From an uncultured Bacilli bacterium (GTDB taxonomy: Bacteria > Bacillota_I > Bacilli_A > RFN20 > CAG-288): DNA of 64,000 bases. The first letter of the stretch is position 1. Each line of letters begins with the position of its first letter. Made by a program: the position numbers and the translations under genes. The notes under the pieces are model-generated. The model ran no database searches, was not told the DNA's origin, and saw nothing but the letters and a program-made list of their open reading frames with translations. This document shows positions 18,104-38,394 of this stretch, piece after piece. The stretch lies in assembly GCA_944372245.1 (NCBI GenBank), contig CALVYN010000002.1, positions 4,065 to 68,064 of the forward strand. Direction: 5' to 3'.

Positions 18104-18116
18104 TCGTGATCTCATC

Positions 18117-18155
18117 CGAACCCTCAGTGCCTGCCGCACGGGGTTCGTTTTTTTG
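18117..18155 (+). terminator. Rho-independent terminator after tRNA-Ser
   Basis: gaaccc...gggttc stem followed by TTTTTTT. Confidence 0.6.
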
Positions 18156-19569: not shown

Positions 19570-19921
19570 TTGATAGTTAAAAGGTGAATCCCGATCTTAG
19601 GCGAGGGAGTGGATTGCAATCGTTTTTAAGCACCTGCAAGGTCTCCTTCGAATGAGTGTGAGAAGCTTCTCGAGGCGAAGATATGGGATGGTAAACTTGA
19701 TAACGCAGAAATCAATATCTCGGGTTCATTTTCCCCAGATGACATTCCCACTCTCTCCAACTAGGAATTTTTCTACGCCAAAATTGTCGGATAACTCCGA
19801 CACCCTTCCTGTTATCTACTTGTGGGATATAATCCCAGTGACCCTCTTCGGGTCATATTTAGCGCCGCTGTCCGATGCTAGGGCGTGCACAAAAAGCCGA
19901 TCATCTTCACGGCGGTAGCTA

Positions 19922-19960
19922 TCACAGCGGAGCGCCTCGGATGCGCTCCGCTTTCCTTTG
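19922..19960 (+). terminator. Strong hairpin/terminator-like element (gcggagcgc-ctcggat-gcgctccgc + tttcctttg)
   Basis: Perfect 9-bp GC-rich stem followed by T-rich tract, in intergenic region upstream of ABC exporter. Confidence 0.45.
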
Positions 19961-20059
19961 TCCCGGAGAGTGGTTATGTCGGAAGAGAGGTCTTGAGAAG
20001 GAGTTGCCCCTTCTAGTCGATCTGCTCTCACAGATTGACTTTATCGGAGATAGCCAAAT

Positions 20060-21697
20060 ATGCGTCAGACATTTGAATTGATCTTACATCGAAAGAATAA
20101 ATGGCTTTCCTTTTCACTTATTCTCTTCTGTTTGGCTTCGACAGTCTGTTCTTCCTTCTATCCTCTTTCGTTAGGCTATATTGTTGATAATTTCGATTTC
20201 CTAGGAACGCAGGACCTTCTCATATGTGGGTTGATTTTCTTAATCTCAATCGTTTTGATTCTAACCTTTGATTTTTTTACTAAGCTATTTAGAGCAAAGC
20301 TCAAGATGATGGTTTTGACTGAAGTTCGAGAGACGTGTCTGGCCAATTTACTACAGCTGCCCTTTAGCGAATTCCACAGAAGATCCTTCGATTGGTATTC
20401 ATCCTTTTTGACAAACGATGTCGATGAGTTCTATTCGAGATACCTGGAGAATCTGATCTATGCAGCCCCCAAGGCATTTACCTTGACTGCCCTCTTTTCA
20501 ATCATGTTCTGGCAGAATTGGATCCTGGGTCTAATTATCCTTCTGGTGTCCTTCCTGACATGTCTACTGCCTCCTCTCACCGGAAAACGATTTGATAGAA
20601 AGCAGTCTAAGGTCATCGAGGGGAAGGCCGACTATTTGAAATGTGCTAATGAACTCATGCAGAGCCATGATCTAGTTCAGAGCAATAACTTCTCCCGCCT
20701 CTCTAATCTTCATAAAAGAAGGCTGATGAGAAGACAGTATCTGGAGTTTGAATTCGATAGATATGAGGCGAAAGTTCAAGTTATGGGGGGTGCGACGCTC
20801 TATATCGTTCAAGCGGTCGTATTCATTGCTGGTTTGGCACTGATCTTCACCGACCATTCAACAGTCGGTGAGTTTTCTGCCTCACTCCTCTTTACCGATC
20901 TTATCGCTGCTCAAGTCTCCGATCTGATCTATGACTTCTACGCATGCAAGGGAGGGAAAGCATACGCCATTAAGGTTTTGCGTTACTATTCCACTCCTTC
21001 CTTTTCAAGCGATAGAGAATGCCCCGAGGATTTCCATGCGATTGAACTGGTTGATCCAGTTTTTGAGATCGCCCCATCCAGAGAACTATCTGGTCAATCC
21101 TTTTCGATTAACAAGGGAGATAAGGTAGCAATTATCGGTGCCAATGGCGCTGGTAAAACCACCTTTCTTCGGCTTCTCTGTGGATTTGAAAGATGTACGA
21201 GTGGCAAGATTCTCTTAGATGGGGTTCCTATTGATAGTCTGGATCTCTCCTCTCTCTTGTCGATTGTTCCACAGACCTCATTTCTTTTTGAGGGTACGAT
21301 TAGGGAAAACATCTCGATGTTCTCTTCATTTTGGGATTGCACTGCTGATTGCTGGCTGAAAACTCTGGGCATCTATGATCGCGCTGACGAGAATGTCGGA
21401 AGAGATGGTTGCTTACTCTCCGGAGGCGAAAGAGCGAAGGTTTGCCTCCTTAGAGCGTTGTATCAAAAGAAGCAGATTCTCATCATGGATGAACCATTCG
21501 CATCGATAGATAGAGAAACTGAGGCTGAATTGCAAAGATTTCTCCTGGAGCAGGATATCACCCTACTTGAAGTGACTCACAATCGGAATGAATCCATCCT
21601 CTCTGGCTTCAACTGCATCATCAACATCGAAGATGGCAATATCTCAACTCCTATTTCTCCTGATGTTTATTTTAAAATTTGCAAAGATTCAGACTAA
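20060..21697 (+). CDS. ABC exporter, fused 6-TM permease + ATPase half-transporter (type I exporter), lower-GC gene
   Basis: N-terminal TM domain; Walker A GANGAGKTT, signature variant LSGGERAKV, Walker B ILIMDEPFASID; no N-terminal C39 peptidase domain. Confidence 0.8.
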   Translation: MRQTFELILHRKNKWLSFSLILFCLASTVCSSFYPLSLGYIVDNFDFLGTQDLLICGLIFLISIVLILTFDFFTKLFRAKLKMMVLTEVRETCLANLLQLPFSEFHRRSFDWYSSFLTNDVDEFYSRYLENLIYAAPKAFTLTALFSIMFWQNWILGLIILLVSFLTCLLPPLTGKRFDRKQSKVIEGKADYLKCANELMQSHDLVQSNNFSRLSNLHKRRLMRRQYLEFEFDRYEAKVQVMGGATLYIVQAVVFIAGLALIFTDHSTVGEFSASLLFTDLIAAQVSDLIYDFYACKGGKAYAIKVLRYYSTPSFSSDRECPEDFHAIELVDPVFEIAPSRELSGQSFSINKGDKVAIIGANGAGKTTFLRLLCGFERCTSGKILLDGVPIDSLDLSSLLSIVPQTSFLFEGTIRENISMFSSFWDCTADCWLKTLGIYDRADENVGRDGCLLSGGERAKVCLLRALYQKKQILIMDEPFASIDRETEAELQRFLLEQDITLLEVTHNRNESILSGFNCIINIEDGNISTPISPDVYFKICKDSD

Positions 21698-21886
21698 TAG
21701 ATTCATAAATCTGCTTAATCTCCGCTGAGAGAAGGGTCAAAAGGTAGCATGGAAGGTCTTCACAGGCAGAGTGTATTTCTTAGTGGACGGGGTTTCCTTC
21801 CGAATCGTCTTGAAGGAGAAAAAAGAACATTTTCAATCAGTGTTTGGAGTGTTCATGTTGTTGAAGAAGAGCTCTTGATGCTCTCG

Positions 21887-22894
21887 CTACTGGTAATCGA
21901 AGCGAATATTGCCATCCTCGAAGCTGACCGTGGCAGAGCCGCCAGTCATGATGGGGAGAGAGGGTGGCAGATGTCCCAGGTCGACATCCATCAATAGGGG
22001 AACGTTGAAGCTTTCGAGCATGTCGATTGCGGCTCGGTACTTGTCCACGCCACCGATATTCATGTCGTTGCACAGGTGGCGTCCGAGGATGAAGCCGGAC
22101 GCCCGCTCGAACCAGCCAGCCTCCCTCAGCTCGAACAGGGCGCGGCGGATTCCGAGAGGATTGAGGTCGCAGGCTTCGAGGAACCAGATGAAGCCTCCTT
22201 CATTAGTCTCGATGAAGCGACGCACACCATCGAAGCGCGTGCCGCAGATATTGACTAGGCAGTCCAGACAGCCGCCGAGCAGCGTTCCAGAGAAGGGGGC
22301 GGAGTATCCGTGGGCACGGATGATCTTCCTCTCGGTCAGGTTGAGGGGCGCTAGGGGATTCTCCGGGGTGACTAGACTGGTCAACTCCCAGGTGGGATAG
22401 CCGGCAAACTGTTTCTTTCCCTCTAGCATCTTGATGGCATCCAGACAATCCATCTTGAAGGGCGTGGAACAGAATTGAGGAGCACAGGGACCGTAGATGG
22501 TCTTCACACCGCACAGGGTGGTCAGGGTGAAAGTCAGGTTGGTGTTGTCAGAGAAACCCATGAACCACTTGGGAGGGAGGTGCGATAGACGGTCGAAATC
22601 GACGTGGGGAAGAATCTCGCACATCAGCTCTCCTCCGCCCACCGAGATGATCGCATCGGCATCGCTCTCGTAGGCGCGCATGAACTCCTCGGCCTGCTCG
22701 CGGGGCGAGGCGGAGGCGATGAGGCCATCATCCCTGAAGATGTTCGGGCCCTCGACGACCGTATAGCCGGCTTCCTTCAATAGTCTAATCGCCTCCTTCA
22801 GCCGGGTCAGGTAGGGCTCGCCGGCGCAGCCGCAGCTGGGGGCGACCAGAGCGATCTTGGCGCCCTTCTTGAGATATTCGGGTGTTCTCACCAT
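21887..22894 (-). CDS. Peptidase S66 family LD-carboxypeptidase (LdcA/MccF-like)
   Basis: Nucleophile motif MGFSDNTNLT (GxSDxT) and overall length/architecture of LD-carboxypeptidases. Confidence 0.7.
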   Translation of the reverse strand: MVRTPEYLKKGAKIALVAPSCGCAGEPYLTRLKEAIRLLKEAGYTVVEGPNIFRDDGLIASASPREQAEEFMRAYESDADAIISVGGGELMCEILPHVDFDRLSHLPPKWFMGFSDNTNLTFTLTTLCGVKTIYGPCAPQFCSTPFKMDCLDAIKMLEGKKQFAGYPTWELTSLVTPENPLAPLNLTERKIIRAHGYSAPFSGTLLGGCLDCLVNICGTRFDGVRRFIETNEGGFIWFLEACDLNPLGIRRALFELREAGWFERASGFILGRHLCNDMNIGGVDKYRAAIDMLESFNVPLLMDVDLGHLPPSLPIMTGGSATVSFEDGNIRFDYQ

Positions 22895-24639: not shown

Positions 24640-25347
24640 GTGGCAAACAATAAGCACAGAAGCACCTGGATGATTGCGGGTGCAGTCGGAGCGGGCCTAG
24701 CCGTGGTCGGCGTCGGCCTCTGCTTCTTCTTCTTGGCCAACGGTGAGCTGGCCGATAGAAACGATGGCAACGTCAACGTCGATCCCGTAGAGGGTCCCTA
24801 TGGGACGCTCACCGCGACCATGGCGGATAGCTCCATCGCCCTGCTGGGCACCGGTGACAACAGCGGATACGTGGATATCGATGGCGTGGAAGACCTCAGG
24901 ACCAGCGTGGTCTTCAACCTCTCGGTCGCGCCCGCCTTCATCGATGAGAACCTCAACTCGACCATCCGGTTCGACATCACGCTCAAGAGCGCCCTCCCCA
25001 CCGTGGAGGCCGCAGGCGATCTGATTGGCCAGCGCGAGGGCGAGAGCTGGACCTACATCGAGTTTGAGCCGGTCAGCCTGACCATTGCGACCGACGACTT
25101 CGTCTACTCTTCCGAGACCGGGCGCTTCCTCTACGAGTCGCCCGAGGTCGGCTGCTCGTTCGTCTGGGGCAGCTTCTTCAACGGGATGAATCCCCAGCTG
25201 TACTACAACGGACTCTTCGCTGGCGAGTCGCCCGCCCTCGTGCCCAACCCCGATAACTTCCGTCTCGTCACCGATGAGCTCAATGCGATGGAGAAGGCGT
25301 TCGCGGGCTCGCAGATCGATCTGCAGCTGGCGCTGTCGACCCTCTAG
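24640..25347 (+). CDS. Secreted protein with N-terminal signal anchor; candidate SipW-cognate (TasA/camelysin-like architecture)
   Basis: N-terminal TM WMIAGAVGAGLAVVGVGLCFFFLANGELAD followed by beta-rich about 200-aa body; GTG start per ORF track; placed directly upstream of S26B signal peptidase gene. Confidence 0.5.
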   Translation: MANNKHRSTWMIAGAVGAGLAVVGVGLCFFFLANGELADRNDGNVNVDPVEGPYGTLTATMADSSIALLGTGDNSGYVDIDGVEDLRTSVVFNLSVAPAFIDENLNSTIRFDITLKSALPTVEAAGDLIGQREGESWTYIEFEPVSLTIATDDFVYSSETGRFLYESPEVGCSFVWGSFFNGMNPQLYYNGLFAGESPALVPNPDNFRLVTDELNAMEKAFAGSQIDLQLALSTL

Positions 25348-25359: not shown

Positions 25360-26040
25360 ATGTCTAAGAGATTCACTCGGACCGGTCTGACCACCGGTCT
25401 GATCTGCACCGGCCTGGCCCTGGGCTGCGTGGGTGTCGGCGTGTCGGCTTGGCAGGTGGGCGATTACTTTGTCTCCCCCACCGATGTCGGTGGCATCACC
25501 GTCGGCGCGGAGGATGCTGAGGGCAACTTCCTCGAGATCGAGAGCGCCCGCGTGGTCGACGACCAGATCCGCTTCGGCACCAAGGTCAACGACCTGGGCG
25601 AGATCACCGCGAACGCGGATACCGAGGATCTGGACTCCTCGTTCACCTTCGACTTTGTCGCTGCGACCGGCGACCTGAGCGGCCTGTTCCTGTCGGTCAC
25701 CGGCACCTTCTCGGAAAACCTCGTCCAGGCGGCCGAGAAGGGCTATATCGTCCTGCCCTTCGAGCCCGGAACCAACTTCAACATTCTGAGCTTCGACAGC
25801 GAGGGCCAGGCCAGCCCCATCGACGGCGAGCACTACACCACCGCGCTCGAGGGTGAGACGGTGACCGTGACCATGAGCTTCGGCTGGGGCGCTAAGTTCG
25901 CCGGCCACAACCCCGTCGAGGATGAGATCTACTTCGGTCTCGATGGAGCGATCGACAGCTTCACCCAGGCCTACCTGGCGGTCGGCGAGCTCCACGATCT
26001 CGTGAGCGACGCCAGCATCCACCTGGAGATTGGAAGGTAG
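25360..26040 (+). CDS. Secreted protein paralogous in architecture to upstream gene; candidate SipW-cognate substrate
   Basis: N-terminal GLTTGLICTGLALGCVGVGVSAWQVGDYFVSPTD resembles SipW-cognate signal peptides (G-rich hydrophobic core then A-x-F/Y-x-x-D). Confidence 0.5.
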   Translation: MSKRFTRTGLTTGLICTGLALGCVGVGVSAWQVGDYFVSPTDVGGITVGAEDAEGNFLEIESARVVDDQIRFGTKVNDLGEITANADTEDLDSSFTFDFVAATGDLSGLFLSVTGTFSENLVQAAEKGYIVLPFEPGTNFNILSFDSEGQASPIDGEHYTTALEGETVTVTMSFGWGAKFAGHNPVEDEIYFGLDGAIDSFTQAYLAVGELHDLVSDASIHLEIGR

Positions 26041-26044
26041 CTTC

Positions 26045-26977
26045 ATGACCAACTCACAGATCATCATCACCTGCGTCGCGGCCTTCTGCCTCGTTGTGAT
26101 CTGCGCTCTCTTCACCGTCACGATCATCCGCTACAAGCGCGCGACCAGCGAGGCGATCACCAAGGGTGCGGACGATCCCGCCCTGGTGGCGAAGGCGCTG
26201 CGCCGCTCGAAGAAGCAGCGGATCGTCATCCGCGTGTTCTCCGCGCTGTGGAAGGCGCTGGTCGCCCTGATTCTGCTCGCGGCGATCTGCTTCATGGCCG
26301 CCTCGATCTACACCCGGGTCTCGGGCAACCGCTTCGCCTTTGGCGACCAGGCCTATCTGGTCATCTCCTCCGACTCCATGTCGAGCAAGAACCCCAACAA
26401 TACCTATCTGAGCGACGAGGAGCTCCAGTCCCAGTACGACCTGGACAATCAGTTCTCCGCCTACGACACCATCGGCATCCAGCAGTATGACTCGGCGGCC
26501 GATGTGAAGCTCTACGACGTCGTCGCCTACGAGGCGACCAGCGGCCAGACCGTCGTCCACCGCATCGTGGACACCGTCGAGGAGGACGGCCAGGTCGTGG
26601 GCTACATCACCCGCGGCGACACCAACAACATCGACGACACCGGCGTCTTCTATACCTCCTACCTCACCTACGATGACATCATCGGCTACTTCGACGGGAA
26701 GGTCATCCCCGTCCTTGGCTATCCCGTGGTCTTCCTCCAGTCCCCCGCCGGCATCATGACCCTGGTCGCCCTGGCCTACTGCTTCATCACCTACGACGTG
26801 GCCGCCAGCCGCCTGGACAAGAGCCGCAAGGCCCGCACCAGCTTCGTCCTGAGCGCTCTGCACATCACCCCCGAGCAGCTCAGGGACGGCAGCTATAACG
26901 ATCTCGAGTCCGTCGTCATCGACGGCCGCGAATACAGTTTCACCGGCGGTCAGCTGACGCCCCGGGAGGAGGCCTAG
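26045..26977 (+). CDS. sipW: Type I signal peptidase of the archaeal/ER (SipW/Sec11, S26B) type with extra N-terminal TM segments and C-terminal TM anchor
   Basis: Ser box VISSDSMS, His box TVVHRIV, and diagnostic RGDTNNIDD (GDNN box) which distinguishes SipW-type from bacterial P-type SPases; GGAAGG RBS before ATG 26045. Confidence 0.7.
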   Translation: MTNSQIIITCVAAFCLVVICALFTVTIIRYKRATSEAITKGADDPALVAKALRRSKKQRIVIRVFSALWKALVALILLAAICFMAASIYTRVSGNRFAFGDQAYLVISSDSMSSKNPNNTYLSDEELQSQYDLDNQFSAYDTIGIQQYDSAADVKLYDVVAYEATSGQTVVHRIVDTVEEDGQVVGYITRGDTNNIDDTGVFYTSYLTYDDIIGYFDGKVIPVLGYPVVFLQSPAGIMTLVALAYCFITYDVAASRLDKSRKARTSFVLSALHITPEQLRDGSYNDLESVVIDGREYSFTGGQLTPREEA

Positions 26978-26980
26978 TTC

Positions 26981-27745
26981 ATGGAGAACGCCAACGTCAC
27001 CCTCGAGAACACGCCCGCTCTCGCCATCAGCGAGCTGACCAAGGCCTACGGCAAGCAGGTCGTCATCCGCGACCTCAACCTGACCGTGGAGCGCGGTGAG
27101 GTCTTCGGCTTCATCGGCCGCAACGGCACCGGCAAGTCGACCACCATCGGCTGCATGGTCGGCCTCAAGCCCTTCAAGAAGGGTCGCATCCTTATCGGCG
27201 GCCACGACATCCAGCAGGACACCATCGAGGCCAAGAAGCTTCTGGGCTACGTGCCCAGCGAGCCGGCCTGCTACGAGATGATGACCGGCCGCGAGTTCCT
27301 CTCCTTCATCGCCTCGGCCTTCGGTCTGACCGCCGAGGCCTTCGACACCCGCATCCAGGAGCTGGTCGCGCGCTTCGACTTCAACCCCATCGATCTCGAC
27401 CGCCGCATCGGCCACTACTCCCTGGGTATGAAGCAGAAGATCTCGCTGATGTCCGCCCTGGTCCACGATCCCCTGCTCTGGGTCCTCGACGAGCCCACCA
27501 TCGGTCTGGACGCCCCCGCGACCGCCGAGCTGGCTCACACCCTGCGCCAGCAGGCCAAGGAGGGCCGCTCGGTCTTCATCACCTCCCACTCCATCGAGTT
27601 CGTCGCCCGCTGCTGCGACCGGGTCGCCATCCTGGCCCAGGAGAATGTGGCTCGCATCGTCGACCTGAGGGGCGGGGAGACCTTCGCCGATCTCAAGCTC
27701 GCCTACGACACCATCTGCCTGCATCATTCGGAGGCTCAGGCATGA
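26981..27745 (+). CDS. ABC transporter ATP-binding protein (ABC-2 type)
   Basis: Walker A GRNGTGKST, signature variant YSLGMKQK, Walker B LWVLDEPTIGLD, H-loop SHS. Confidence 0.85.
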   Translation: MENANVTLENTPALAISELTKAYGKQVVIRDLNLTVERGEVFGFIGRNGTGKSTTIGCMVGLKPFKKGRILIGGHDIQQDTIEAKKLLGYVPSEPACYEMMTGREFLSFIASAFGLTAEAFDTRIQELVARFDFNPIDLDRRIGHYSLGMKQKISLMSALVHDPLLWVLDEPTIGLDAPATAELAHTLRQQAKEGRSVFITSHSIEFVARCCDRVAILAQENVARIVDLRGGETFADLKLAYDTICLHHSEAQA

Positions 27746-29340
27746 GGGTGCTGGGACTGGTCAAGAAGGAGGTGGTCAGCCACTTCCGGCGCGTCGACGC
27801 GTCGGTGTGGACCACCTTCTCCAGCGCCGCGCTGACCGTCCTGGGGGCGGTCATCATCGCGGCTCTCATCGGCTACGTCACCTATACCGTCGACAGCAAG
27901 ATGCTCGAGGCGGCCTCCTCCTCGGCGCCCTACCTGATCGCGCTGTTCCTCTTCATCTTCGCCGCCTTCAACTGCGTGGACGGGGCGCTCAGGGCGCGGC
28001 GCACCTTCTATTCCGAGAGCGATCGCGAGATCGTGAACCCTCTGCCTTACAAGCCTTATGAGATAGTTCTCTCAAAGACCATCTTCCTCTGGCTCTACCA
28101 GATTGCTGAAGGCGCACTCCTGTCTCTGCCCGTGCTCCTGGTCTTCGGTATCAACCGCGACTACGGGGCGGGCTACTACGTCGTCTCCGTCATCTACTGC
28201 CTGGTGATCCCCACCATGGTGACCGGTGCGAGCCTCATCCTCTCCGTCGTCTTCCAGTGGGTCTACCGCTGGATGCGCGGGCACGACCTGATCCAGTTCC
28301 TGCTGGCGGCGGTCGTGGTCGTGGGCCTGTGCTTCATCTACGCCCTCTTCCTGCGCCTCTTCCTGGCCTCGCTCTCGCAGGAGAGCGACATCTCCGGCGC
28401 GCTGCCCGGCGCCTTCATGGAGAACCTGGAGCACATCACCTCCTTCATGCCTCCCGTCTACCACTTCATCGACCTGTGGATCAGCGGGGCGCACCAGTTC
28501 GTCAACATCATGGTGCTGCTCCTGTGCGGCCTGGCGCTGCCGGCGGGCGGATACTTCCTCTCCCTCTGGTACTACCAGAGGTGGGACCGCGGTCTGGGCA
28601 GCCGGATCAAGGCGAGAAGGAACCGCACCTATCCCGCCTTCACCAACCTGCTGCGCAAGGAGCTGATCCTCCTGTTCAAGGATTCGCCCTCGATCTTCTC
28701 CTACACCTCGCTGCTGATCATGATGCCCTTCCTGGGCTATGTGGTCATCTCCGCCTTCAACGCCATCCTGGGCACCAACATGTCGGTCGTCCTCAACTAC
28801 TATCCCCTGCTGACCGAGATCATCGATGTCGCTCTGATCCTCCTCTTCGTCTCGATCATCAACTCCTCCGCCTCCCTCTCGCTGACCCGCGAGGGCCGGG
28901 GCCTGGCGGTCTATAAGACCCTGCCCGTCTCCCCCTGGATGACCATCGCCTCGAAGATCAGCGTCCCCTCCGCCCTCTCGGCCTTCTCCCTGATCGTGAC
29001 CCTGGCCGTCCTGGGCGGTCTGGGCGAGCTCTCGGGCGCGAGCATCGGCGTCTGCCTGGGCGGCGGTCTCCTCCTGATCCTGGCCCAGAACTTCCTGGGC
29101 ATCGAGCTGGATGTCTACGACCGGGGCTACGGGCGCGTGCGCTTGTCGTTCCTGGCCTCGATCTGCTCGATCCTCATCCCTCTGGTGGCGAGCCTGGGTG
29201 GCTTCCTGGGCATCTTCCTGGGCTGGAGCACCGCGCTCATCTACGCCTTCATCTTCCTGGTCCTGGCCGCCTTCTCCGCCATCCCGCTGATCCTGACCTG
29301 CCGCCTCAGGAGGCTCTTTGTGAATATGGAGGCCATGTAG
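27742..29340 (+). CDS. Large polytopic ABC-2-type permease (532 aa, about 12 TM, internally duplicated)
   Basis: Start overlaps ATPase stop by 4 nt; highly hydrophobic throughout. Confidence 0.7.
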   Translation: MRVLGLVKKEVVSHFRRVDASVWTTFSSAALTVLGAVIIAALIGYVTYTVDSKMLEAASSSAPYLIALFLFIFAAFNCVDGALRARRTFYSESDREIVNPLPYKPYEIVLSKTIFLWLYQIAEGALLSLPVLLVFGINRDYGAGYYVVSVIYCLVIPTMVTGASLILSVVFQWVYRWMRGHDLIQFLLAAVVVVGLCFIYALFLRLFLASLSQESDISGALPGAFMENLEHITSFMPPVYHFIDLWISGAHQFVNIMVLLLCGLALPAGGYFLSLWYYQRWDRGLGSRIKARRNRTYPAFTNLLRKELILLFKDSPSIFSYTSLLIMMPFLGYVVISAFNAILGTNMSVVLNYYPLLTEIIDVALILLFVSIINSSASLSLTREGRGLAVYKTLPVSPWMTIASKISVPSALSAFSLIVTLAVLGGLGELSGASIGVCLGGGLLLILAQNFLGIELDVYDRGYGRVRLSFLASICSILIPLVASLGGFLGIFLGWSTALIYAFIFLVLAAFSAIPLILTCRLRRLFVNMEAM

Positions 29341-29341: not shown

Positions 29342-31762
29342 ATGGGAAAGAAGAAGACTCTGATATTCCTGCTGATCGTGCCTCTCCTGGTGGCTCTGAT
29401 CTCCTATGTCGGCTACGTCGTGCTCCACCGCCAGATCCGCGTCGACCTGAGCGATATCCGCTGGAGCTACAGCCCCAACCAGGGCTTCCGCATCGGCGAT
29501 GACTACAGACTCGAGGCCGAGGGCGTCTACAACGAGGACCTGACCCTAGCCGAGGGCAACGAGCTCGTCTGGAGCCTTCCCGCCGACTGCGAGGATGCCA
29601 CCATCGAGCAGCGCGACGACGGCTACTACCTGATCCCCGAGACCGAGGGCTCGGCCGTGGTCACCTGCGCTAACGCCAAGGGCACCATCTCCAAGAGCTT
29701 CAACGCTGTCTTCTACGCCACCGGCGCCATCGTCATCAACCCCGTCAACAACGTCTCCGGCGCCTCGGTCGACGGCCAGCTGGACTACGGCCAGTACGAG
29801 TTCGCCTACCAGGGCAGCGGCGCCCCGACCAAGGTCGCCTCGACCCTCGAGCTGGACGTGTCGATCCTGGGCGACTTCGATAACCCCGCCATCGCCTTTG
29901 ACACCTCCGACAACCTCGCCTACGACGAGGAGACCGCGAGCCTGAAGGTCCTCGGCCCCGGCCTGGCGACGGTCTCTGCCCACCTGGTCGACTATCCCTC
30001 CATCGCCACCACCTACGAGTTCAACGTCGTCGAGGGCGGCGTGAACGTGCGGAGCTACACCGACCTGCTCTACTGCACCAACTGGGCTGAGACGCCCTGC
30101 CCCGCGGTCCTCCAGGTCAACCTGGGCTCCCTCAGGGACACCTACGTCCGCAACGAGGATGGTGCCTACTCCCAGGAGCTGATCTCCGAGAACACCGCCC
30201 TGTTTGGAAACTACGACTTCACCAGCCGGTCGTTCTCCTTCGAGGATGAGATTTACACCTTTGAGACGACCTACTTCACCGAGTTCATCGAGCAGTACAA
30301 CGCCGCCCGCCCCAACGGGGCCGTCCCCATCTCCACCGAGGTCCTGGCCGGCATCCACCTGCAGGCGGACCTCTACGGCAACGGCTTCTACATCAACATG
30401 AGCAACCTGGCCTACCCCAACCACGGCAAGGTGGATCAGGCGACCGGCAAGCTGACCCCGGGCGCGGAGGACCTCTTTCAGGGTCCCCTCCCCTTCATGG
30501 GTCTGGGCGACCTGGCCAACTACCCCATCGTCTCCGCCTACGGCCAGGACAACTGCGGCATCTACATCGACACGGATGGCGTGACCATCGACGATGTCAC
30601 CATCCGCAACGTCGACGATGTCGACAACCTCTACAACCTCACCTACACCGGCACGGTCCTGGATGTCGAGGCGAGGGATGTGACCGTCCAGAACTCGATT
30701 CTGGCTAACGGCAAGAACATCGTCCGCGCCTTCTCCGCCGACGGCTTGACCATCGACAACTGCACCCTCAGAAACGCGGCCGAGTTCCTCCTCCACGCCG
30801 GCTCCAACCGCGCCAACACCTACGACGACACCAAGACTTTCTCCTACTTCGACGGGAAGACCTCGACCGAAGTCAGCTTCGAGGACTTCTTCGAGGGGAC
30901 GGAGGGCGCCACCCTGGAATCCGCCTACAACAGCATCCTGCGTGGGACCATCAGCGACGTCGCCGGCATCAAGAGGTCGATGGAGTCGGTCCAGGAGGGC
31001 CTGGACAACACCGCCGGCATGATCGCAGCCGACGGGATGGTCAACTACGACGCCCACATCACCGTCAGGGATACCAGCTTCGACACCTCGGGCGTCTACT
31101 CGATCGCCCTGGACTCGGCCTTCAACGGCGGCTACCTCTACAACGGCGCCCCCTCCATGGTCCAGACGGTCTTCGATCAGTTCCAGGTCGACATCCTGCC
31201 CCCCGACCGGGTCGGACACACCTCCTACCCCGTCGAGCTCACCCTCGAGGGCGACACGAGGTTCTACGACTTCAAGGACATCGAGGAGGCGGATATCTCG
31301 ACCCTGATCGAGGAGAACATCACCGCCCTGCTCCAGCAGATCGGCATGCTCGACCCCTCGATCAGCGTCAACATCGACGACTACTTCCCCCTCAAGGACG
31401 TCATCCGCCAGCAGGCGTCCCAGCGCGGCCTGCTCTATCAGGCGGACGGCCACGACTACATCAACACCCAGGTCGCCTGGTACGGCGGCGGCGTCAACCT
31501 GTCCACCCTGGTGGACGAGAGGGAGTCGGTCCATCTCGACTCCTCCGAGGTCTACGATCTGGACTTCGTCACCGGGGCCCTGGAGTACGTCCCCGACCCC
31601 AGCATCGGCAGCCAGGCCGGCTCACTGATCCAGGTCCTGCAGCGCGCGGTGTTCATGGTCACCGGTGTCCACCCCTTCCGCACCATCACCAACGGCCCGG
31701 TGACTCCGGGTCAGGTCCCCCCGCTGTTCGGGGAGAGCGCCCCCGCTCCGTCGGGGCGCTAG
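29342..31762 (+). CDS. Membrane-anchored extracellular protein with right-handed parallel beta-helix repeats (pectin-lyase fold; candidate polysaccharide-active enzyme or adhesin)
   Basis: N-terminal signal anchor LIFLLIVPLLVALISYVGYVVL; repeats of the form VTIDDVTIRNV / VTVQNSILANGKNIVRAF / LTIDNCTLRNAAEF typical of PbH1 beta-helix turns. Confidence 0.6.
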   Translation: MGKKKTLIFLLIVPLLVALISYVGYVVLHRQIRVDLSDIRWSYSPNQGFRIGDDYRLEAEGVYNEDLTLAEGNELVWSLPADCEDATIEQRDDGYYLIPETEGSAVVTCANAKGTISKSFNAVFYATGAIVINPVNNVSGASVDGQLDYGQYEFAYQGSGAPTKVASTLELDVSILGDFDNPAIAFDTSDNLAYDEETASLKVLGPGLATVSAHLVDYPSIATTYEFNVVEGGVNVRSYTDLLYCTNWAETPCPAVLQVNLGSLRDTYVRNEDGAYSQELISENTALFGNYDFTSRSFSFEDEIYTFETTYFTEFIEQYNAARPNGAVPISTEVLAGIHLQADLYGNGFYINMSNLAYPNHGKVDQATGKLTPGAEDLFQGPLPFMGLGDLANYPIVSAYGQDNCGIYIDTDGVTIDDVTIRNVDDVDNLYNLTYTGTVLDVEARDVTVQNSILANGKNIVRAFSADGLTIDNCTLRNAAEFLLHAGSNRANTYDDTKTFSYFDGKTSTEVSFEDFFEGTEGATLESAYNSILRGTISDVAGIKRSMESVQEGLDNTAGMIAADGMVNYDAHITVRDTSFDTSGVYSIALDSAFNGGYLYNGAPSMVQTVFDQFQVDILPPDRVGHTSYPVELTLEGDTRFYDFKDIEEADISTLIEENITALLQQIGMLDPSISVNIDDYFPLKDVIRQQASQRGLLYQADGHDYINTQVAWYGGGVNLSTLVDERESVHLDSSEVYDLDFVTGALEYVPDPSIGSQAGSLIQVLQRAVFMVTGVHPFRTITNGPVTPGQVPPLFGESAPAPSGR

Positions 31763-31795: not shown

Positions 31796-32524
31796 ATGGT
31801 TAAGATGAGAATGGCTCTGATCGTGGGGTTAGCCGCCCTGGCCATCGGCAGCGCGGGCACGGCCGCGTTCATCTTCGGCAGCCGCAAGGCCGTCCAGGGC
31901 AACGTGGGCTTCGATGCGGATTCGGGCAGCTACGACACCGACGTCCTGCGCCCGATCGGCCTGCCCGAGAGCGTGACCTACGTCGCGGATTCGGCCCGGG
32001 CCTCCACGGTCGCTGACGGCGGCTACGAGACTGTCGCCGACCTGAACCTGGGAGCGGACAGCCCCATCCCCGAGACCGACCAGTCCGCCTTCTTCGTGAA
32101 GGCGAGCTTCGGCTATGACCCGCAGAAGGCTTCCGCCTGGATCGAGAGGAACTGCCACACTTTCAGCTGGCTGTACGCCTCGCTGGTCCCCGCGGATGCT
32201 TCGGCGTTCGCAAAGAACTTCGCCAGCGCGGAGGCGGCGGCCTATCTGGTCTATACCGGCACCGAGGTCGCCCCGGCCTACGGCTCCGGTGTGGCGATTG
32301 CTCCGCTCGGTACGCTGACCGACGGCGATCGGACGGGTCTGGGTTTCGGCGAGGTGTTCTACGAGGGAACGGACCTCGCTCAGTTCTTCCAGCTGGGCAT
32401 CAGCGCGGATCAGAAGTTCGATCTGATCTTCGCCCTGCCTGTCGGCGAGGAGTTCAACCTCGAAGAGGTCAAGACGTTGGATTTCAGCATCGGTCTGAAT
32501 GTCAGGGAGGTGAAGTATGAATAA
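31796..32524 (+). CDS. Small secreted protein; candidate SipW-cognate substrate
   Basis: N-terminus MALIVGLAALAIGSAGTAAFIFGS resembles SipW-cognate signal (GT-A-x-F-x-F). Confidence 0.5.
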   Translation: MVKMRMALIVGLAALAIGSAGTAAFIFGSRKAVQGNVGFDADSGSYDTDVLRPIGLPESVTYVADSARASTVADGGYETVADLNLGADSPIPETDQSAFFVKASFGYDPQKASAWIERNCHTFSWLYASLVPADASAFAKNFASAEAAAYLVYTGTEVAPAYGSGVAIAPLGTLTDGDRTGLGFGEVFYEGTDLAQFFQLGISADQKFDLIFALPVGEEFNLEEVKTLDFSIGLNVREVKYE

Positions 32525-35500
32525 GAGGATTCTCATCAATTCGCTGGTCGGCGGCACCGTCGTGGCGGGCCTGTCCCTGCCCCTAGCGCACGCCAGCTTT
32601 TCATTTGCCGACTACGGCGTCCTGGAGGATGGCACCATCTCCTCGGTCGCTCCTGCAGAGGGCTACGACTACACCGTGACCTTCGCTGAGGGCAACGCGA
32701 CCTCCAGCGATTCGAAGACCACCACCCTGCCCGAGGCAATCGGCTTCCAGGAGGGGGCGGAGTTCACCCCGGAGGCCATCGAGACCACTCCCGCAAAAGA
32801 GGGTTATGCCTTCGATGGCTACTACACCGATGCCTCCTGCACCACGGCCTACAACTTCTACACCAGCGTCGATTCCGACATGACCCTGTACGTAGCCTTC
32901 ACTCCTCTGGACAGCTATTCCTATACCGATAGTTCCCAGAACGTCTTCACGGCCAGCAGCAGCCTAGATCTGAAGGAGGACACCGTCGATATCGGCGGGA
33001 TCAAGGTCTTCAAGTACAGCTCCTCGGCTAAGAATACCGGCGATGGCCAGTACACCCTGAACCTCGCCACCACCGCTCTGGACGACGGTGCGACCTACTC
33101 GCTGCAGGTCTATGGTAAAGATAAAGAAGGAAGGGGGGATGTTTGGAACTCTAGCGTCTTTCTGCCTAGCCAGAATGACGGACGGGTCATTCGCTCTAAC
33201 TCCAAGTTTTTTACCCTTGTCCTCCAGGATGATCTGGTCATCTCCAACGGGTCGACTCTCCAGATTGGCGGCTGTTCCTCCCTGGTCGGCAATGGTATCT
33301 ACTGCGATCTCGCTAGCGATAACTTCGCTCTGGATCTCAACGGACACAATCTGATCGTCGAGCCCGGTTCGAACCTTGAGTTATATGGCCTTCTGACCGA
33401 TTCCACCAAGAAAGGTATGGTCGTGGTCGATAGCGGCGCTTACATCAAGGTGAAGATGTCGGTCTACAACGGTGGAGGTTCGCAGCTGTTGACCGCCAGT
33501 TCCTACTATGTGAATCCCTTCCCCTTCTATGGCTTCCCTGCTCTGGATGCGAATATCCGCTTCTACGCCGGCGCGGAGATGACCGCAGTCATGTCGGCGG
33601 GAACCAGCAGCCAGGGTGTGGTGGTCGATGTGCCTTTCATCGGCAAACCCCTGCCTGCGGATTCGGATGAGACCGCAGCCATGCTGATCCTAGAGTCTAA
33701 AGATGCCAATTCCCCCGGGTACCTCGACTTCCGCCACAATATGATTCCTGCTCCCCGCGGAAGCTTGAATGCCTACCGGGTGTGGGACACCCAGTATCGC
33801 GAGTACTTCTCCTTCCACGACTGCCTCATGACACTCGGCTCGCTCGCAATGAAAGTATCAATGGCTTCGATCGACTCGGCCGAGTTCCTCTGGGAGCTGC
33901 CGGGCAACAGCGATATCACCCTGGATAACTGCGATCTCTACATCGACCACCAGTTCCAGCTCAATCCCGGTCTCAACTTCTATTCCGATAAGGATTCCAA
34001 CATCATCTTCCGCTGCAATTCTGTCGACCCCTGCGGCATCGTCGCTCCTTCCAAGCTCTTCTCCACGGCCGTGGCCGACAACATCTCCAACCTCGGCTCC
34101 ACCACCGCCGGTCACATCATGGCCGATCTCAGGGGCAAGGAGCAGTCGCTGATCACGGTCATGGGCGACATCAGGTTCGAGTATCCCGAGGGGAGTGCCA
34201 AGGTTGATCAGGTCACCTTCCTTGGAGGATATTTCAACCTGTCGGATCGGGCTCTCGCCTCCGTTCTCGCTGCGGCTGAGAAGGGGCAGGTCACGCTCAT
34301 GTCCAAGGGTCAGCTCGCCAACTTCCACTACGTCAACTCCTGGAGTAGCAGATGGGGTGTGGCCAGCTACTACGTCTATCCCCTCATCGCCAATGGCGTC
34401 GCCTACACCAATGACCATCTGGATGGCGGTCTCAAACCTTTGGATGGAAAGATCGGTTCGGGCATCTACACCGATGGGACGAATTACTATTCCTACTTCA
34501 ATGTGGATAACGAGCGCCCCGACGACTTCGGTGAGGGAAACTTCGAGCTCAGGAAGATCGACTACGATGCGACGACTCACTCCTACACCATCGCCGGCGA
34601 CGACAGCGGACAGAAGTATGCCTACTTCGCTGGTATCTCCGTCCCTGTCTATCTGTTCCAGAAGGATGGCAAGAGCTGGGTCACGATGTCCGATATGCTG
34701 ATAGACAGTGCGGCTTCGAGCTACGACTTTGTCATTACCTACGACGAGGCGAGCGGGGGCTATCTTCTGGCTAAGACACAGACCTACGATTCTGGCGTCG
34801 AAGATATTTCCATCGCTGTGACTCTCAAAGCGGGTAACAACTGTGCAGCGGTGGCTGACGTTCAGCTGACCGAAAAGATCGGTGCCACTTTGAACCTGAC
34901 CCAACTGGCTTCTAAGTATGGTTTCACAACCACTAGTTCTGAGGCTAAGAACAATTTTGAGGTCGAGGTTACTGGCGGCGAGACGACGTCTATCAGTGAG
35001 ACAACTCTCGTGATCGACCTCAATCTCGGTCTGGAGATTCTGGAGAGCAAGAGCATCACCATCACCTTCAATTATGGTGGCAGCTCTGGCGGCGGAGGCG
35101 ATGGCTGCATCTTTGCGGATGCTCCTGTCCTGATGGCCGACGGCTCGACCAAGCGGGCCGATGAGGTCAAGGTCGGCGATATCGCTCTGGCCTGGGACTT
35201 CGAGACGGGCCGGGTTAAGGCGAACCGCGTCTTCTTCTACGAGATGTACGAGCAGGACATCTTCGCTGTGTGGATCCAGCTGGCGAACGGCGAGGAGCTG
35301 CGCATCGCCTGCCCTCACGCGCTCTTCGACTACAGCGAGCGAAAGTTCTTCACCGTCACCACCGAGAACTACACCTCGATCGTCGGCCGCGAGATCGCCA
35401 TCTTCAACGGCGTGGACAGCGGCCTGTCCTCCACTAGGATCGTCTCGGTCAGGGGACACCGGGAAAGGCGTGTCGTTGGAAACATCGAGACCGCACACAC

Positions 35501-35777
35501 TCTGAACTTCTTCTGCGGTGGGGCGCTCAACGCCGATGCTGTCTACGTGGCTAAGTTGCCCTTCGAGGTCGGTGCGGACTTTGCCTACGACCGGAAGGAT
35601 GTGGCCGAGAGCATCAGCAGGTACGGCCTGACCAAGTACGAGGTGTTCAAGGACTACATGAATTTCGATAACTTCGACTGTCTCAACGGCCAGTACGTCT
35701 CCATCTGTATCGGTAAAGGGCTCTTTACGCTCGACTACCTGTTTGAGATTGCCAAGTACTATCTTGGCGGCAAGTAG
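32517..35777 (+). CDS. Giant secreted protein (1086 aa) with C-terminal Gly/Ser linker, Hint/intein-like autoprocessing domain and about 85-aa C-terminal tail
   Basis: N-terminal signal LVGGTVVAGLSLPLAHASFSFADYG; C-terminus GGSSGGGGDG-CIFADAPVLMADGS...VKVGDIAL (Hint block A starting with Cys) ... RRVVGNIETAHTLNFF (TxxH / intein block F-like). Confidence 0.65.
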   Translation: MNKRILINSLVGGTVVAGLSLPLAHASFSFADYGVLEDGTISSVAPAEGYDYTVTFAEGNATSSDSKTTTLPEAIGFQEGAEFTPEAIETTPAKEGYAFDGYYTDASCTTAYNFYTSVDSDMTLYVAFTPLDSYSYTDSSQNVFTASSSLDLKEDTVDIGGIKVFKYSSSAKNTGDGQYTLNLATTALDDGATYSLQVYGKDKEGRGDVWNSSVFLPSQNDGRVIRSNSKFFTLVLQDDLVISNGSTLQIGGCSSLVGNGIYCDLASDNFALDLNGHNLIVEPGSNLELYGLLTDSTKKGMVVVDSGAYIKVKMSVYNGGGSQLLTASSYYVNPFPFYGFPALDANIRFYAGAEMTAVMSAGTSSQGVVVDVPFIGKPLPADSDETAAMLILESKDANSPGYLDFRHNMIPAPRGSLNAYRVWDTQYREYFSFHDCLMTLGSLAMKVSMASIDSAEFLWELPGNSDITLDNCDLYIDHQFQLNPGLNFYSDKDSNIIFRCNSVDPCGIVAPSKLFSTAVADNISNLGSTTAGHIMADLRGKEQSLITVMGDIRFEYPEGSAKVDQVTFLGGYFNLSDRALASVLAAAEKGQVTLMSKGQLANFHYVNSWSSRWGVASYYVYPLIANGVAYTNDHLDGGLKPLDGKIGSGIYTDGTNYYSYFNVDNERPDDFGEGNFELRKIDYDATTHSYTIAGDDSGQKYAYFAGISVPVYLFQKDGKSWVTMSDMLIDSAASSYDFVITYDEASGGYLLAKTQTYDSGVEDISIAVTLKAGNNCAAVADVQLTEKIGATLNLTQLASKYGFTTTSSEAKNNFEVEVTGGETTSISETTLVIDLNLGLEILESKSITITFNYGGSSGGGGDGCIFADAPVLMADGSTKRADEVKVGDIALAWDFETGRVKANRVFFYEMYEQDIFAVWIQLANGEELRIACPHALFDYSERKFFTVTTENYTSIVGREIAIFNGVDSGLSSTRIVSVRGHRERRVVGNIETAHTLNFFCGGALNADAVYVAKLPFEVGADFAYDRKDVAESISRYGLTKYEVFKDYMNFDNFDCLNGQYVSICIGKGLFTLDYLFEIAKYYLGGK

Positions 35778-35855: not shown

Positions 35856-36680
35856 ATGTCATACAGCGAGAGAATCCCCCTGAGGGGAACTAGGAACACC
35901 CGCGATCTAGGAGGCTATATCGGCCTGGAGGGAAAGAAGGTGAAGACGGGGCTCATCTACCGCTCCGACTCCCTCTCCTTCCTCGAGGAGGACGATGTCG
36001 CCTTTCTAGCGGAGCAGCTCCAGCTCCGCTATGACATCGACCTCAGGAGCGAGCAGGAGACCGAGGAGAAGCCCGACGTGGCCATCCCCGGCTGCCGCCT
36101 GGTTCTCATCCCCATCACCTCCAAGATTCTCATGGGTTCGACCGTGCAGCCTCCCGCCTTTGCCAAGAATGACCCTGAGATCAGCTGGCACTATCGCCGC
36201 CTCTACTCCCTCCATCCCGACGGCGATGCCATCGAGGGGATGAAGAACCTCTATCTGCACTACGTGGAGATGGAGTCCAATCGGTGTGCCTACACCGAGT
36301 TCCTCAACCTGGTGGCAGATGCCGAGGGTCCTCTGATCTTCCACTGCGCCGACGGCAAGGACCGCACCGGCATGGCGGCGGCTTACATCCTCTCCATCCT
36401 CGGCGTCGATCGAGAGACAATCCTGGATGACTACGAGGCCAGCGCGGGTTACCTGGTGGGAAAGTGCCAGGAGCGGGCCGAGAAGCTCAGGGCGGCCGGC
36501 ATCGCCGACGAGCGGCTGATTCGGAACATGTGCCTGCTAGCCAGCGTCAAGCGCTGCTGGCTGGAGGCAGCCCTGGAGCGGATCGACAACGCCTACGGCG
36601 GAATGGACCGCTACCTGACTGAGATTCTCCACATCGATGAGGGTGTCAAACAGCGGATTCGCCAGAAGTATCTCGACTGA
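35856..36680 (+). CDS. Protein-tyrosine phosphatase (CX5R, Y_phosphatase3-like family)
   Basis: Active-site HCADGKDRTG (C-x5-R P-loop). Confidence 0.75.
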   Translation: MSYSERIPLRGTRNTRDLGGYIGLEGKKVKTGLIYRSDSLSFLEEDDVAFLAEQLQLRYDIDLRSEQETEEKPDVAIPGCRLVLIPITSKILMGSTVQPPAFAKNDPEISWHYRRLYSLHPDGDAIEGMKNLYLHYVEMESNRCAYTEFLNLVADAEGPLIFHCADGKDRTGMAAAYILSILGVDRETILDDYEASAGYLVGKCQERAEKLRAAGIADERLIRNMCLLASVKRCWLEAALERIDNAYGGMDRYLTEILHIDEGVKQRIRQKYLD

Positions 36681-36766: not shown

Positions 36767-36829
36767 TCGAAAGAAATGCAATCTTGCCAATAAAATATGA
36801 AGCTGAACTGTATAAGGGGTGGAGGCAGA

Positions 36830-37348
36830 ATGTCCAGCGATGAGATACTGAGTGCTCTGCGCGCCATGAAGAGCGGTGATATGGACGGCTTCGAGCCGTT
36901 CTACGAGCAGACCAAGCGCATGGTCTTCTTCGCAGCCAAGGCGGTCCTGAAGGACAACGCCCGCTCCGAGGATGTCATGCAGGATGTCTATATCCGTTTC
37001 CTGGAGATGCTCGACCGCATCGAGGAGGACCGCGGGGTCGTCGGTCTGCTGGTCAAGATGGCGCGCAATCTCGCTCTCAATATCCTCGAGCGCGAGCAGC
37101 GCTCCGTCGAGCTGGACGAGAACCTCCACGGGTCCATCTCCGCGACTGACAATCTGGGTTCCGACCTCTTTGAGCGCATGCGCAAGCTCCTGGATGACGA
37201 TGAGTACGAAATCGTGATCCTGCACGTCGTGGATGAGCTCAAGCACCGGGAGATTGCCGAGATGATGTCGCTTCCGCTGGGGACTGTGACCTGGAAGTAC
37301 AACCGTGCCATCGCCAAGCTGCAGAAAGGATTGGGTGATCTGAGATGA
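36830..37348 (+). CDS. ECF-family RNA polymerase sigma factor (sigma-70 regions 2 and 4)
   Basis: Region 2 DVMQDVYIRFLE, region 4 HTH REIAEMMSLPLGTVTWKYNRAIAKLQ; start at MSSDE. Confidence 0.8.
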   Translation: MSSDEILSALRAMKSGDMDGFEPFYEQTKRMVFFAAKAVLKDNARSEDVMQDVYIRFLEMLDRIEEDRGVVGLLVKMARNLALNILEREQRSVELDENLHGSISATDNLGSDLFERMRKLLDDDEYEIVILHVVDELKHREIAEMMSLPLGTVTWKYNRAIAKLQKGLGDLR

Positions 37349-38394
37349 ACGAGAACGACATCGAAAGGCTCATCCGCGAGGAGAGTCAGCGGGTGGAGAT
37401 CAAGACCACCGCCGCCTCGATCCTCGAGCGCTACCGCATCGAGGAGAAGGTGAAGAAGACGTCGAAGAAACCCTGGTATCGTCGCCCCTCCTTCATGGTG
37501 GGCGCCCCGGCTTTCGGCATCGTGGCGGTTCTCTCCATCGGTCTCGGCACCTATTTCGGCCTCGGCGCGGGCGGAGGCGGCCAACCCTCGGTCGGCAGCA
37601 GCGGAGGCGGCCAGGTCGTGATTCCTCTGGGCGACACCAGGATTCAGGCGGCCTCCTATGAGGTTCTAGCCGGCATGAGCTTCATCGGCTCAACGGGCAG
37701 CGATACTCAGGCCGCAGCTGTCAGGCGTGCCCGGCAGGTCAGCGAGACGCAGTTTGAGCAGATCTGTGCCGCCTTCGATAGCCACTACGGGATGATTGCC
37801 ACCTTGGAGTCCTACTCCGCTAGCGGCTTCGTCTACACCCCTATCGCTTCCGACGACCCCTCGATGCCCTACTGCATCCAGATCGCCGACTTCAAGTTCT
37901 ACTACGATGCACCGCTGCAGGACGAGGATGAGACGCTGATCCAGGGCTACACCACCACTCTGGATGGCCAGCGCCTGCAGACTGTCCGCATCGAGAGCGA
38001 GCAGGAGTATGAGCCCGGCGAGAGTGAGAGCGAGATCGAGGTCACGCTGATCAGCGCCGACGGAACCTCGGTGACCATCGCTCAGACCAACGAGAGCGAG
38101 GGCAGCGAGTCCGAGGATGAGTTCTCCCTCATCCAGCGCGATGCCCGCGGCCGCGAGCTGACCGAGATTAGCTTCCAGCTGGAGAGCGAGCACGGCCAGA
38201 CCGAGAAGACCTTCGACATCGAGGTGTCCGAAGGGCGAGAGCTCGAGTGGTCCTACACCATCTTCGATGAGACTTCCACGAGCATGAAGCTCGCCTTCGA
38301 GGGCGAGGATGGGGAGATCTCCTATCGCAATCCTATCCTGGTCGAGCTCGACCCTCGGGTCTACACCTATGGCGAGCTGGAGTATCGGCCCTAG
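37345..38394 (+). CDS. Putative membrane-anchored anti-sigma factor (single TM, acidic Glu-rich extracytoplasmic domain)
   Basis: 4-nt overlap with sigma-factor stop; TM AFGIVAVLSIGLGTYFGL; no enzymatic motif. Confidence 0.5.
   Translation: MNENDIERLIREESQRVEIKTTAASILERYRIEEKVKKTSKKPWYRRPSFMVGAPAFGIVAVLSIGLGTYFGLGAGGGGQPSVGSSGGGQVVIPLGDTRIQAASYEVLAGMSFIGSTGSDTQAAAVRRARQVSETQFEQICAAFDSHYGMIATLESYSASGFVYTPIASDDPSMPYCIQIADFKFYYDAPLQDEDETLIQGYTTTLDGQRLQTVRIESEQEYEPGESESEIEVTLISADGTSVTIAQTNESEGSESEDEFSLIQRDARGRELTEISFQLESEHGQTEKTFDIEVSEGRELEWSYTIFDETSTSMKLAFEGEDGEISYRNPILVELDPRVYTYGELEYRP

Follow-up and report, generated by a model that had tools for sequence, protein, structure and literature searches.

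We analysed a gene at 32517..35777 (+ strand) of a 64,000-nucleotide stretch of DNA, which we call the window. The list of open reading frames (ORFs) gives its product as a protein of 1086 amino acids (aa), with the stop codon at 35775-35777. The protein is predicted to be secreted and carries a C-terminal module that resembles Hint domains. Hint domains carry out the chemistry of protein splicing and of hedgehog lipidation, and those of bacteria are known mainly as inteins, bacterial intein-like (BIL) domains and pre-toxin processing modules. We find that residues 864-1086 of the window protein are a true hedgehog/intein-type Hint domain, a member of the Hint superfamily, together with a small helical domain that we refer to as the tail. 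This two-part module ends more than 1000 unannotated large secreted proteins of uncultured gut bacteria.

A preliminary description of this DNA had already proposed a C-terminal autoprocessing domain of the Hint or BIL type at this place. That identification was right in outline and wrong in detail. Its coordinates and quoted peptides are right, save that position 35105, given as the start of the module, is the last base of the Gly863 codon.

The protein opens with a predicted N-terminal signal peptide, read from the sequence as MNKRILINSLVGGTVVAGLSLPLAHA|SFSF (32517..32594, + strand; the bar marks the putative cleavage site). This N-terminus has a hydrophobic core (Kyte-Doolittle hydropathy 1.91) and an A-x-A motif, and looks like a Sec signal peptide. 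Residues 52-125 form a Listeria-Bacteroides repeat (Flg_new; 32670..32891, + strand; Pfam PF09479, E 1.7e-8, score 34.9 bits with the cut-off at 27), and the rest of the passenger, residues 126-853, matched no Pfam family. When the whole protein was used in a word-index homology search, every non-self match ran through the Flg_new repeat alone. A flexible linker, GGSSGGGGDG (residues 854-863; 35076..35105, + strand), then leads to the module and ends in Gly863, the -1 residue of a predicted scissile bond. The codon of Cys864 occupies nucleotides 35106-35108, and CIFADAPVLMADGSTKRADEVKVGDIAL comes next.

The identical protein is present in NCBI and ENA metagenome assemblies, including metagenome scaffolds and the metagenome-assembled genome (MAG) GCA_949294285.1, and its 90% cluster holds 15 sequences. 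No second copy or paralogue of the module was found in the window. A long ORF on the opposite strand (33858..35498) is what a G+C content of about 58% commonly yields as a by-product.

Two strain alleles, P0012 and P0015, differ from the window protein by 47 and 48 substitutions from residue 853 onward. All of these but A890V fall within residues 939-1085 (35331..35774), which comprise the Hint domain's second half and the tail, and only about 17 substitutions precede residue 853. This clustering points to recombination or gene conversion, which may have swapped the end of the module for a homologous variant.

Hint fold and active-site residues

We searched for relatives of the module by exhaustive phmmer with residues 853-1086 as the query, counting representatives of 50% identity clusters. 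At E<=1e-3 the search returned 2229 representatives, of which 1337 reached E<=1e-10. Statements on alignment span and on the tail rest on the best 150 of these 2229 matches, all of which cover essentially the whole unit of about 225 aa, Hint domain and tail together. The closest relatives among the phmmer matches listed are 45% and 42% identical to the window module over its length. The family became visible only by exhaustive HMMER searching. A word-index homology search with the 234-aa C-terminus gave no match, and a single-sequence search of PDB sequences with the C-terminal region gave no significant match, so that a family profile was needed.

The Hint domain spans residues 864-1007 (35106..35537, + strand) and opens with the nucleophile Cys864 and block A (CIFADAPVLMADG). 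Against the Pfam Hint model PF01079, the window protein alone scored 24.5 bits (cut-off 29.7, E 2.4e-5), in a match that spans only the N-terminal half of the model. The same model was matched by 22 of 27 sampled family members with a best E-value of 1.8e-9, and the models Hom_end_hint, Intein_splicing, Hint_2, PT-HINT and Vint were each matched by fewer. The family profile aligned with the solved Hint domain of Tetrahymena BIL2 at E 2e-12 over the entire Hint length, with blocks A, B, F and G in register. It reached hedgehog at E of about 5e-5, and an hhalign comparison with Drosophila hedgehog HhC gave a probability of 92% and an E-value of 6.7e-7.

An AlphaFold2 model of the module, built on a 31-sequence alignment, reached a predicted local distance difference test (pLDDT) score of 89.6 and a predicted template modelling (pTM) score of 0.86. 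In the model, residues 864-1006 are beta-rich and residues 1026-1084 contain four helices, with Hint domain and tail forming one confident unit. The module thus has the beta-fold of the Hint superfamily as well as its position-1 nucleophile and block B His. As the searches gave both matches to profile hidden Markov models and a Hint fold, the assignment to a Hint or BIL-type autoprocessing domain stands.

Residue conservation was counted in an alignment of 149 family sequences, reported here in window numbering. Position 863, the -1 residue, is occupied by G (63 sequences), S (44), T (11), P (8) and A (5), and the positions ahead of it are rich in S, T and G across the family. The nucleophile Cys864 is C in 148/149. 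Together with the signal-peptide-like N-terminus, this bears out the earlier claim of a secreted protein with a nucleophilic Cys after the GGSSGGGGDG linker. Block A (residues 864-876) follows the pattern C-x-x-x-[GD]-T-L-I-x-[LM]-A-D-G, in which D875 is kept in 139/149 and G876 in 145/149, and CIFADAPVLMADGSTKRADEVKVGDIAL was correctly recognized as its start. Further along, G898 is invariant (149/149).

Block B is IACPHALFD (residues 930-938; 35304..35330, + strand), with the catalytic-type residues His934 and Asp938. Position 934 is H in 113/149 and Q in 35/149, F937 is kept in 134/149 and D938 in 130/149. The family pattern is [IV]-x-x-H-x-F-F-D, where the position of the Thr of TxxH is taken by I, V or A. 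IACPHALFD aligns with 'CTVNHRFYD' of BIL2, such that His934 corresponds to His69 of BIL2, and with 'TPAH' of hedgehog.

The equivalent of blocks F and G is GNIETAHTLNFFCGGALNA (residues 988-1006; 35478..35534, + strand), which has no terminal His-Asn and aligns with 'IYHIQVENNHNFFANGVLAHA' of BIL2. The corresponding family pattern, Y-S-I-x-T-A-x-x-x-N-x-F-A-x-G-L-L-[TS], aligns with 'IYHIQVENNHNFFANGVLAH(N)' of BIL2. Within block F, position 992 is T or S in 145/149, N997 is N in 131/149 and A993 is conserved, and His994 is poorly kept (H in 11/149). Within block G, G1002 is kept in 104/149 and L1004 in 132/149, and position 1005 is T or S in 130/149, where the window protein has N. In columns 1004-1007 the family has L, T/S, V/L/I and T/P/A. 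In agreement with the preliminary description, a terminal His-Asn with a following nucleophile is absent, and the family consensus at this place is L-[TS]-x.

The assignment of the other blocks had to be revised. The preliminary description compared 'RRVVGNIETAHTLNFF', about 130 aa after the Cys, to block B/F and read it as the TxxH of block B. Its TAHTLNFF, which starts at residue 992, aligns to block F ('NNHNFFANG'), and the real block B, which starts with IACPHALF at residue 930 and has its His about 70 aa after the Cys, was missed. Likewise, CGGALNAD, which starts at residue 1000 and had been taken for the beginning of the tail, is block G of the Hint domain. The domain runs to about residue 1007, and the tail had been set seven residues early.

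Column 911 is a His in 68/149 members, where it forms part of an 'NHG' motif, and a Tyr in the window copy. This column matches His48 of BIL2, a zinc-binding residue according to the BIL2 structure paper. Judged from the alignment, metal regulation is possible in part of the family.

The helical tail and predicted cleavage

The tail is a conserved C-terminal helical domain (residues 1008-1086; 35538..35774, + strand) that starts directly after block G. In the Hint fold the N- and C-termini are adjacent, and block G lies next to the N-terminal junction. Conservation of the tail equals that of the Hint domain, with conserved positions at F1016, Y1024-D1025, [D]1032, Y1036-G1037-L1038, Y1041, F1053, N1057, Y1060, K1067-G1068 and T1071. 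Across the family, tails have a median length of 81 aa, a median net charge of -9 and 19% aromatic residues. No transmembrane (TM)-like or hydrophobic segment was found in the family tails. A membrane anchor, or an equivalent of the sterol recognition region (SRR) of hedgehog, was rejected on account of this and of the net charge.

Neither Pfam nor NCBIfam has a model for the tail or one that covers the two-part unit, and the tail has no sequence relative and no fold match in the PDB. It was never found without a Hint domain in the sampled loci, which is weak evidence as the sample was chosen via the module. Because the tail shares the conservation of the Hint domain, matches no toxin family in Pfam and has no TM stretch, we conclude that it is a conserved subdomain of the module.

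This bears on what the Hint domain would release. The preliminary description saw the last 85 or so residues as cargo to be released or re-ligated, and framed the locus in terms of polymorphic toxins. On such a reading the module would be a PT-HINT or A-type BIL cassette, whose Hint domain releases the tail of about 80 aa as a toxin or peptide. Many polymorphic toxins do have a Hint domain ahead of the C-terminal toxin (PMC3482391), and B-type BIL domains can cut at their C-terminus by an atypical route (PMC7765530). PT-HINT is matched, weakly, by 3/27 members, and the two strain alleles described above have a replaced C-terminal 150 aa. However, the tail is one conserved domain in all of the best 150 of the 2229 matches, where a toxin cassette would be polymorphic, and in the model it makes up a single unit with the Hint domain. 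It is acidic and matches no Pfam toxin family and no PDB fold. The end of block G has no Asn and no next nucleophile, and the allele swap begins inside the Hint domain and brings in a homologous version of the same module. As the preliminary description stated, no immunity-like gene follows: the downstream gene belongs to a tyrosine-phosphatase family (Y_phosphatase3), and the neighbours vary across loci. Release of the tail as cargo is thus very unlikely, and the toxin framing was abandoned.

We propose that the module acts at its other end. It would fold after Sec export, whereupon Cys864 would attack the carbonyl of Gly863 in an N-to-S acyl shift and form a thioester at Gly863|Cys864. Water or an acceptor nucleophile would then resolve the thioester, leaving a free module of about 25 kDa (223 aa) and a passenger (about residues 27-863) with Gly863 at its end. 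With no Asn and no C-extein, only an external nucleophile could resolve it. Hint-domain chemistry and the basis of the N-to-S acyl shift have been described (PMC7765530, PMC8616854), and His69 of BIL2, the counterpart of His934, is the proposed proton shuttle for this shift (PMC8616854). Since the tail is conserved with the Hint domain and the junction between them has no Asn or nucleophile, the bond expected to break is Gly863|Cys864, with release of the 863-residue passenger. We consider such N-terminal autocleavage, in the style of hedgehog, to be probable from the sequence evidence. The tail begins beside the scissile bond and would gate the thioester or its hydrolysis, or pick the acceptor. 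The adjacent Hint termini, the co-conservation and the confident single-unit model suggest that gating the thioester or choosing its acceptor is the most likely role of the tail. The SRR of hedgehog has this role for cholesterol, and the flanking domains of BIL2 have it for a lysine.

Several points weigh against this proposal. Cleavage itself is inferred for every family member, and both the juxtaposition of Cys864 and His934 and the contact of the tail with the active site rest on alignment to solved Hint structures and on known topology. The Thr of TxxH in block B is missing family-wide and 23% of the members have Gln for His, which may make catalysis slow or, in some members, abolish it. 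Asp46, the general base that activates the sterol in hedgehog, aligns to an unconserved, gapped loop and has no conserved counterpart, and the tail is acidic and soluble whereas the hedgehog SRR is hydrophobic. The window copy is itself divergent, with Ala869 for the consensus Thr, Gly988 for Tyr and Ser1032 for Asp, and falls below the Pfam Hint cut-off when taken alone.

Part of this would also fit a catalytically dead Hint-like fold that has a structural, binding or anchoring role and does not cleave. The missing block B Thr, the change of His to Gln in 35/149 and the low Pfam score of the window copy all favour such a fold, and non-catalytic Hint-like folds do exist, for example AXH, which was among the weak matches. 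On the other hand, Cys1 is present in 148/149 sequences and always stands first in the domain, with a small residue and a flexible S/T/G linker ahead of it. Such constancy would be difficult to account for if no chemistry took place at that bond. The His of block B, moreover, is kept in 76% of the members and is aligned with the catalytic His of both BIL2 and hedgehog. We therefore regard a dead fold as unlikely and favour autocleavage at Gly863|Cys864. If the module only self-cleaves, it would represent a widespread step in the maturation of the largest surface proteins that poorly known gut bacteria make, and as such deserves annotation.

Family distribution and genomic neighbourhood

Full-length matches (>180 residues) among the best 150 and the members of the query cluster carry the module at most 17 aa from the C-terminus, with 6 exceptions. 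A C-terminal position was also found in most of 87 ORFs from 79 genomic loci, where the host proteins range from 800 to more than 2300 aa and several loci contain two such genes in tandem. A crude hydropathy screen detected a hydrophobic, signal- or anchor-like N-terminus in 98/150 family members. The only source name seen for family proteins was 'hypothetical protein'. Their passengers seldom match Pfam, and the match is to Flg_new when they do.

Some N-termini in the family are of the SipW type ('GTLAWFTD') and some are like those of type IV pilins ('KGFTTVELVIVIAVIAILA'). The latter occur in module proteins and some of their neighbours (proteins P0070 and P0080; locus L036 from position 1542 and locus L069 from position 7074). 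Many other members and neighbours have a hydrophobic stretch that ends in [AS]-[AST]-W. Going by these motifs, the pilin-like and [AS]-[AST]-W N-termini may be a distinct class of export or processing signal. One protein of 3496 aa (P0041) contains two complete modules in one ORF, at residues 330-552 and 1770-2001, with passenger-like sequence after each. Either the protein is a polyprotein that its Hint domains cut up, or the fusion arose in gene calling or assembly.

A scan of species-representative genomes yielded at least 471 confirmed loci. The scan was made with a 7-sequence subfamily, and the resulting list of taxa is biased towards this 'DIEKYGLY' subfamily. Nearly all of the loci listed lie in gut or rumen MAGs, either of Clostridia (Oscillospiraceae, Faecousia, Acutalibacteraceae, Christensenella and Lachnospiraceae) or of Bacilli (Acholeplasmatales, Coproplasma and Scatosoma).

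A search of plasmids gave no module match, and the sole match in phages was a terminase intein. A mobile-element origin was rejected on these results. The phage match, together with weak matches to Intein_splicing (7/27) and intein_Nterm (10/27), could be taken to indicate a true but degenerate intein, or the remnant of a mobile intein in a host gene. The module, however, has no C-extein, His-Asn, +1 nucleophile or homing endonuclease, and it ends non-conserved, hypervariable secreted proteins where an intein would sit inside a conserved enzyme. An intein origin is extremely improbable.

We found no description of a Firmicutes module of C-terminal Hint and helical domain in the literature, with subscription journals outside the search. 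Bürglin (PMC2362128) already noted that proteobacteria and myxobacteria have further divergent families of C-terminal Hint domains, and the general idea is therefore already known. The helical add-on, the family size and the host range appear undescribed in the literature searched.

The gene of the window protein is the last of a co-directional gene string. The string starts with two small secreted proteins (24640..25347 and 25360..26040, + strand), whose N-termini resemble SipW-type signals ('VSAWQVGD' and 'GTAAFIFG'). These are followed by a SipW/archaeal-type signal peptidase I (26030..26977, + strand; TIGR02228, 54.1 bits against a cut-off of 51.85; SipW model E 2.8e-15), an ABC transporter consisting of ATPase and permease (26981..29340, + strand), an 806-aa beta-helix-like protein (29342..31762, + strand) and a 242-aa protein (31796..32524, + strand). 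The string at 24640-32524 resembles a locus for making a secreted matrix or fibre, and the link of the signal peptidase and the string to the module is circumstantial. The Y_phosphatase3 gene lies directly downstream of the module gene (35856..36680). It is followed by an extracytoplasmic function (ECF)-type sigma factor (36797..37348) and by a 349-aa gene that overlaps the latter and resembles one for a membrane anti-sigma factor (37345..38394).

A Y_phosphatase3 gene also lies downstream of the closest orthologue (P0025). Of the window neighbours, none recur beside the module in 79 other loci except SipW (2 loci) and Y_phosphatase3 (1 locus), and a fixed operon partner was rejected on this basis. 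Approximately 11 of 46 genes located immediately downstream of module genes have SipW-type or TasA-like N-termini.

In rare cases the module is not terminal, and an acidic linker with one to four immunoglobulin (Ig)-like repeats ('GTASTGYAKITVDG..YYT.QI..GESF..VESFWG') follows it in the same ORF. Such fusions occur in loci L048 (676..5616) and L053 (3241..7977) and in proteins P0102, P0140 and P0169. The same repeat is found in separate genes directly downstream of module genes (L011 6759..8060, L014 3691..4836, L019 6810..7571 and L052 6789..7379), and several of these Ig-repeat neighbours carry SipW-type signals ('TWAWF[ST]'). The pattern of repeats that are either fused or neighbouring hints at a functional link.

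Elsewhere in the window, an LD-carboxypeptidase is encoded, and the host organism therefore probably has a cell wall. The stretch at about 18000..22000 has a G+C content of 0.44-0.48 compared to about 0.62 elsewhere. It may have been horizontally acquired and encodes a fused ABC exporter (ABC_membrane and ABC_tran, 20060..21697) as well as a 373-aa ORF that matches no family.

A further, tentative proposal concerns the fate of the thioester. The tail might choose a specific acceptor to which the Cys864 thioester is passed, rather than to water, which would make the module similar in function, too, to the Hog domain of hedgehog. We consider this doubtful, though it merits mention. The acceptor could be a group on the cell wall or on a glycopolymer, or a lysine that belongs to an Ig-like partner or a SipW-dependent fibre. 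The evidence is circumstantial: BIL2, the closest solved relative, transfers to lysine; about a quarter of the downstream genes are SipW-type or TasA-like; the Ig-like repeat is fused behind the module in a few members; and a SipW-type peptidase is present in the window string. If true, acceptor transfer would be a sortase-independent and ATP-independent covalent attachment of giant surface proteins in gut Firmicutes. A tail that directs the thioester to an acceptor would mean a new covalent surface-attachment mechanism and a compact, self-contained ligation tag of biotechnological interest.

Comparison with known systems

In the module as in PT-HINT (PF07591), large secreted proteins have a Hint domain close to their C-terminus, and the family profile reaches PT-HINT proteins at E of about 1e-9. 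The two differ in what follows the Hint domain, which is one conserved domain in the module and a variable toxin in PT-HINT. The module also has no immunity gene, and as few as 3/27 members match the PT-HINT model.

BIL domains occur in variable, non-conserved secreted or surface proteins of bacteria and autocleave rather than splice (PMC7765530). The module, too, is a Hint domain in non-conserved secreted bacterial proteins. A-type BIL domains (for example that of C. thermocellum, PDB 2LWY) are defined by a conserved C-terminal His-Asn (PMC7765530), which is absent from the module, and membership of this type was rejected since columns 1004-1007 contain no His-Asn. B-type BIL domains (Pfam Hint_2, PF13403) resemble the module in having no C-terminal intein motif. 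Hint_2 is matched weakly by 5/27 members (best E 0.0018) and not by the window protein. For neither type has a strictly terminal position or an obligatory, conserved helical domain at the C-terminus been described.

Blocks A, B, F and G of the module are in register with those of BIL2 from BUBL of Tetrahymena thermophila (PDB 6TMM/6Y75). BIL2 also offers a precedent for the proposed chemistry: instead of classical splicing, it uses its thioester to conjugate the upstream, N-terminal domain to lysines (PMC8616854). Unlike the module, BIL2 keeps a C-terminal His-Asn and has ubiquitin-like domains on both flanks. It is eukaryotic and cytoplasmic, and it has no helical C-terminal domain.

The architecture of the module is that of the hedgehog Hog domain (PDB 1AT0), which pairs a Hint domain with a sterol or adduct recognition region (SRR or ARR; PMC2362128). 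Both are found at the end of a secreted protein as a Hint domain with a conserved extra region of about 70-80 aa, both have a small residue and Cys at the scissile bond (Gly|Cys in the window protein), and both are without the C-terminal splicing residues of inteins. In hedgehog, the Hint domain together with the SRR esterifies cholesterol (PMC7765530; PMC2362128). The extra region of the module, in contrast, has no sequence or fold similarity to that of Hog and no detectable relative, and it is acidic and soluble where the Hog region is hydrophobic and membrane-associating. Sequence similarity to Hog is confined to the N-terminal half of the Hint domain. Asp46 is not conserved in the module family, no SRR/ARR homology was found, and the bacterial hosts imply no sterol acceptor. 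The module, though no Hog domain, may function like one.

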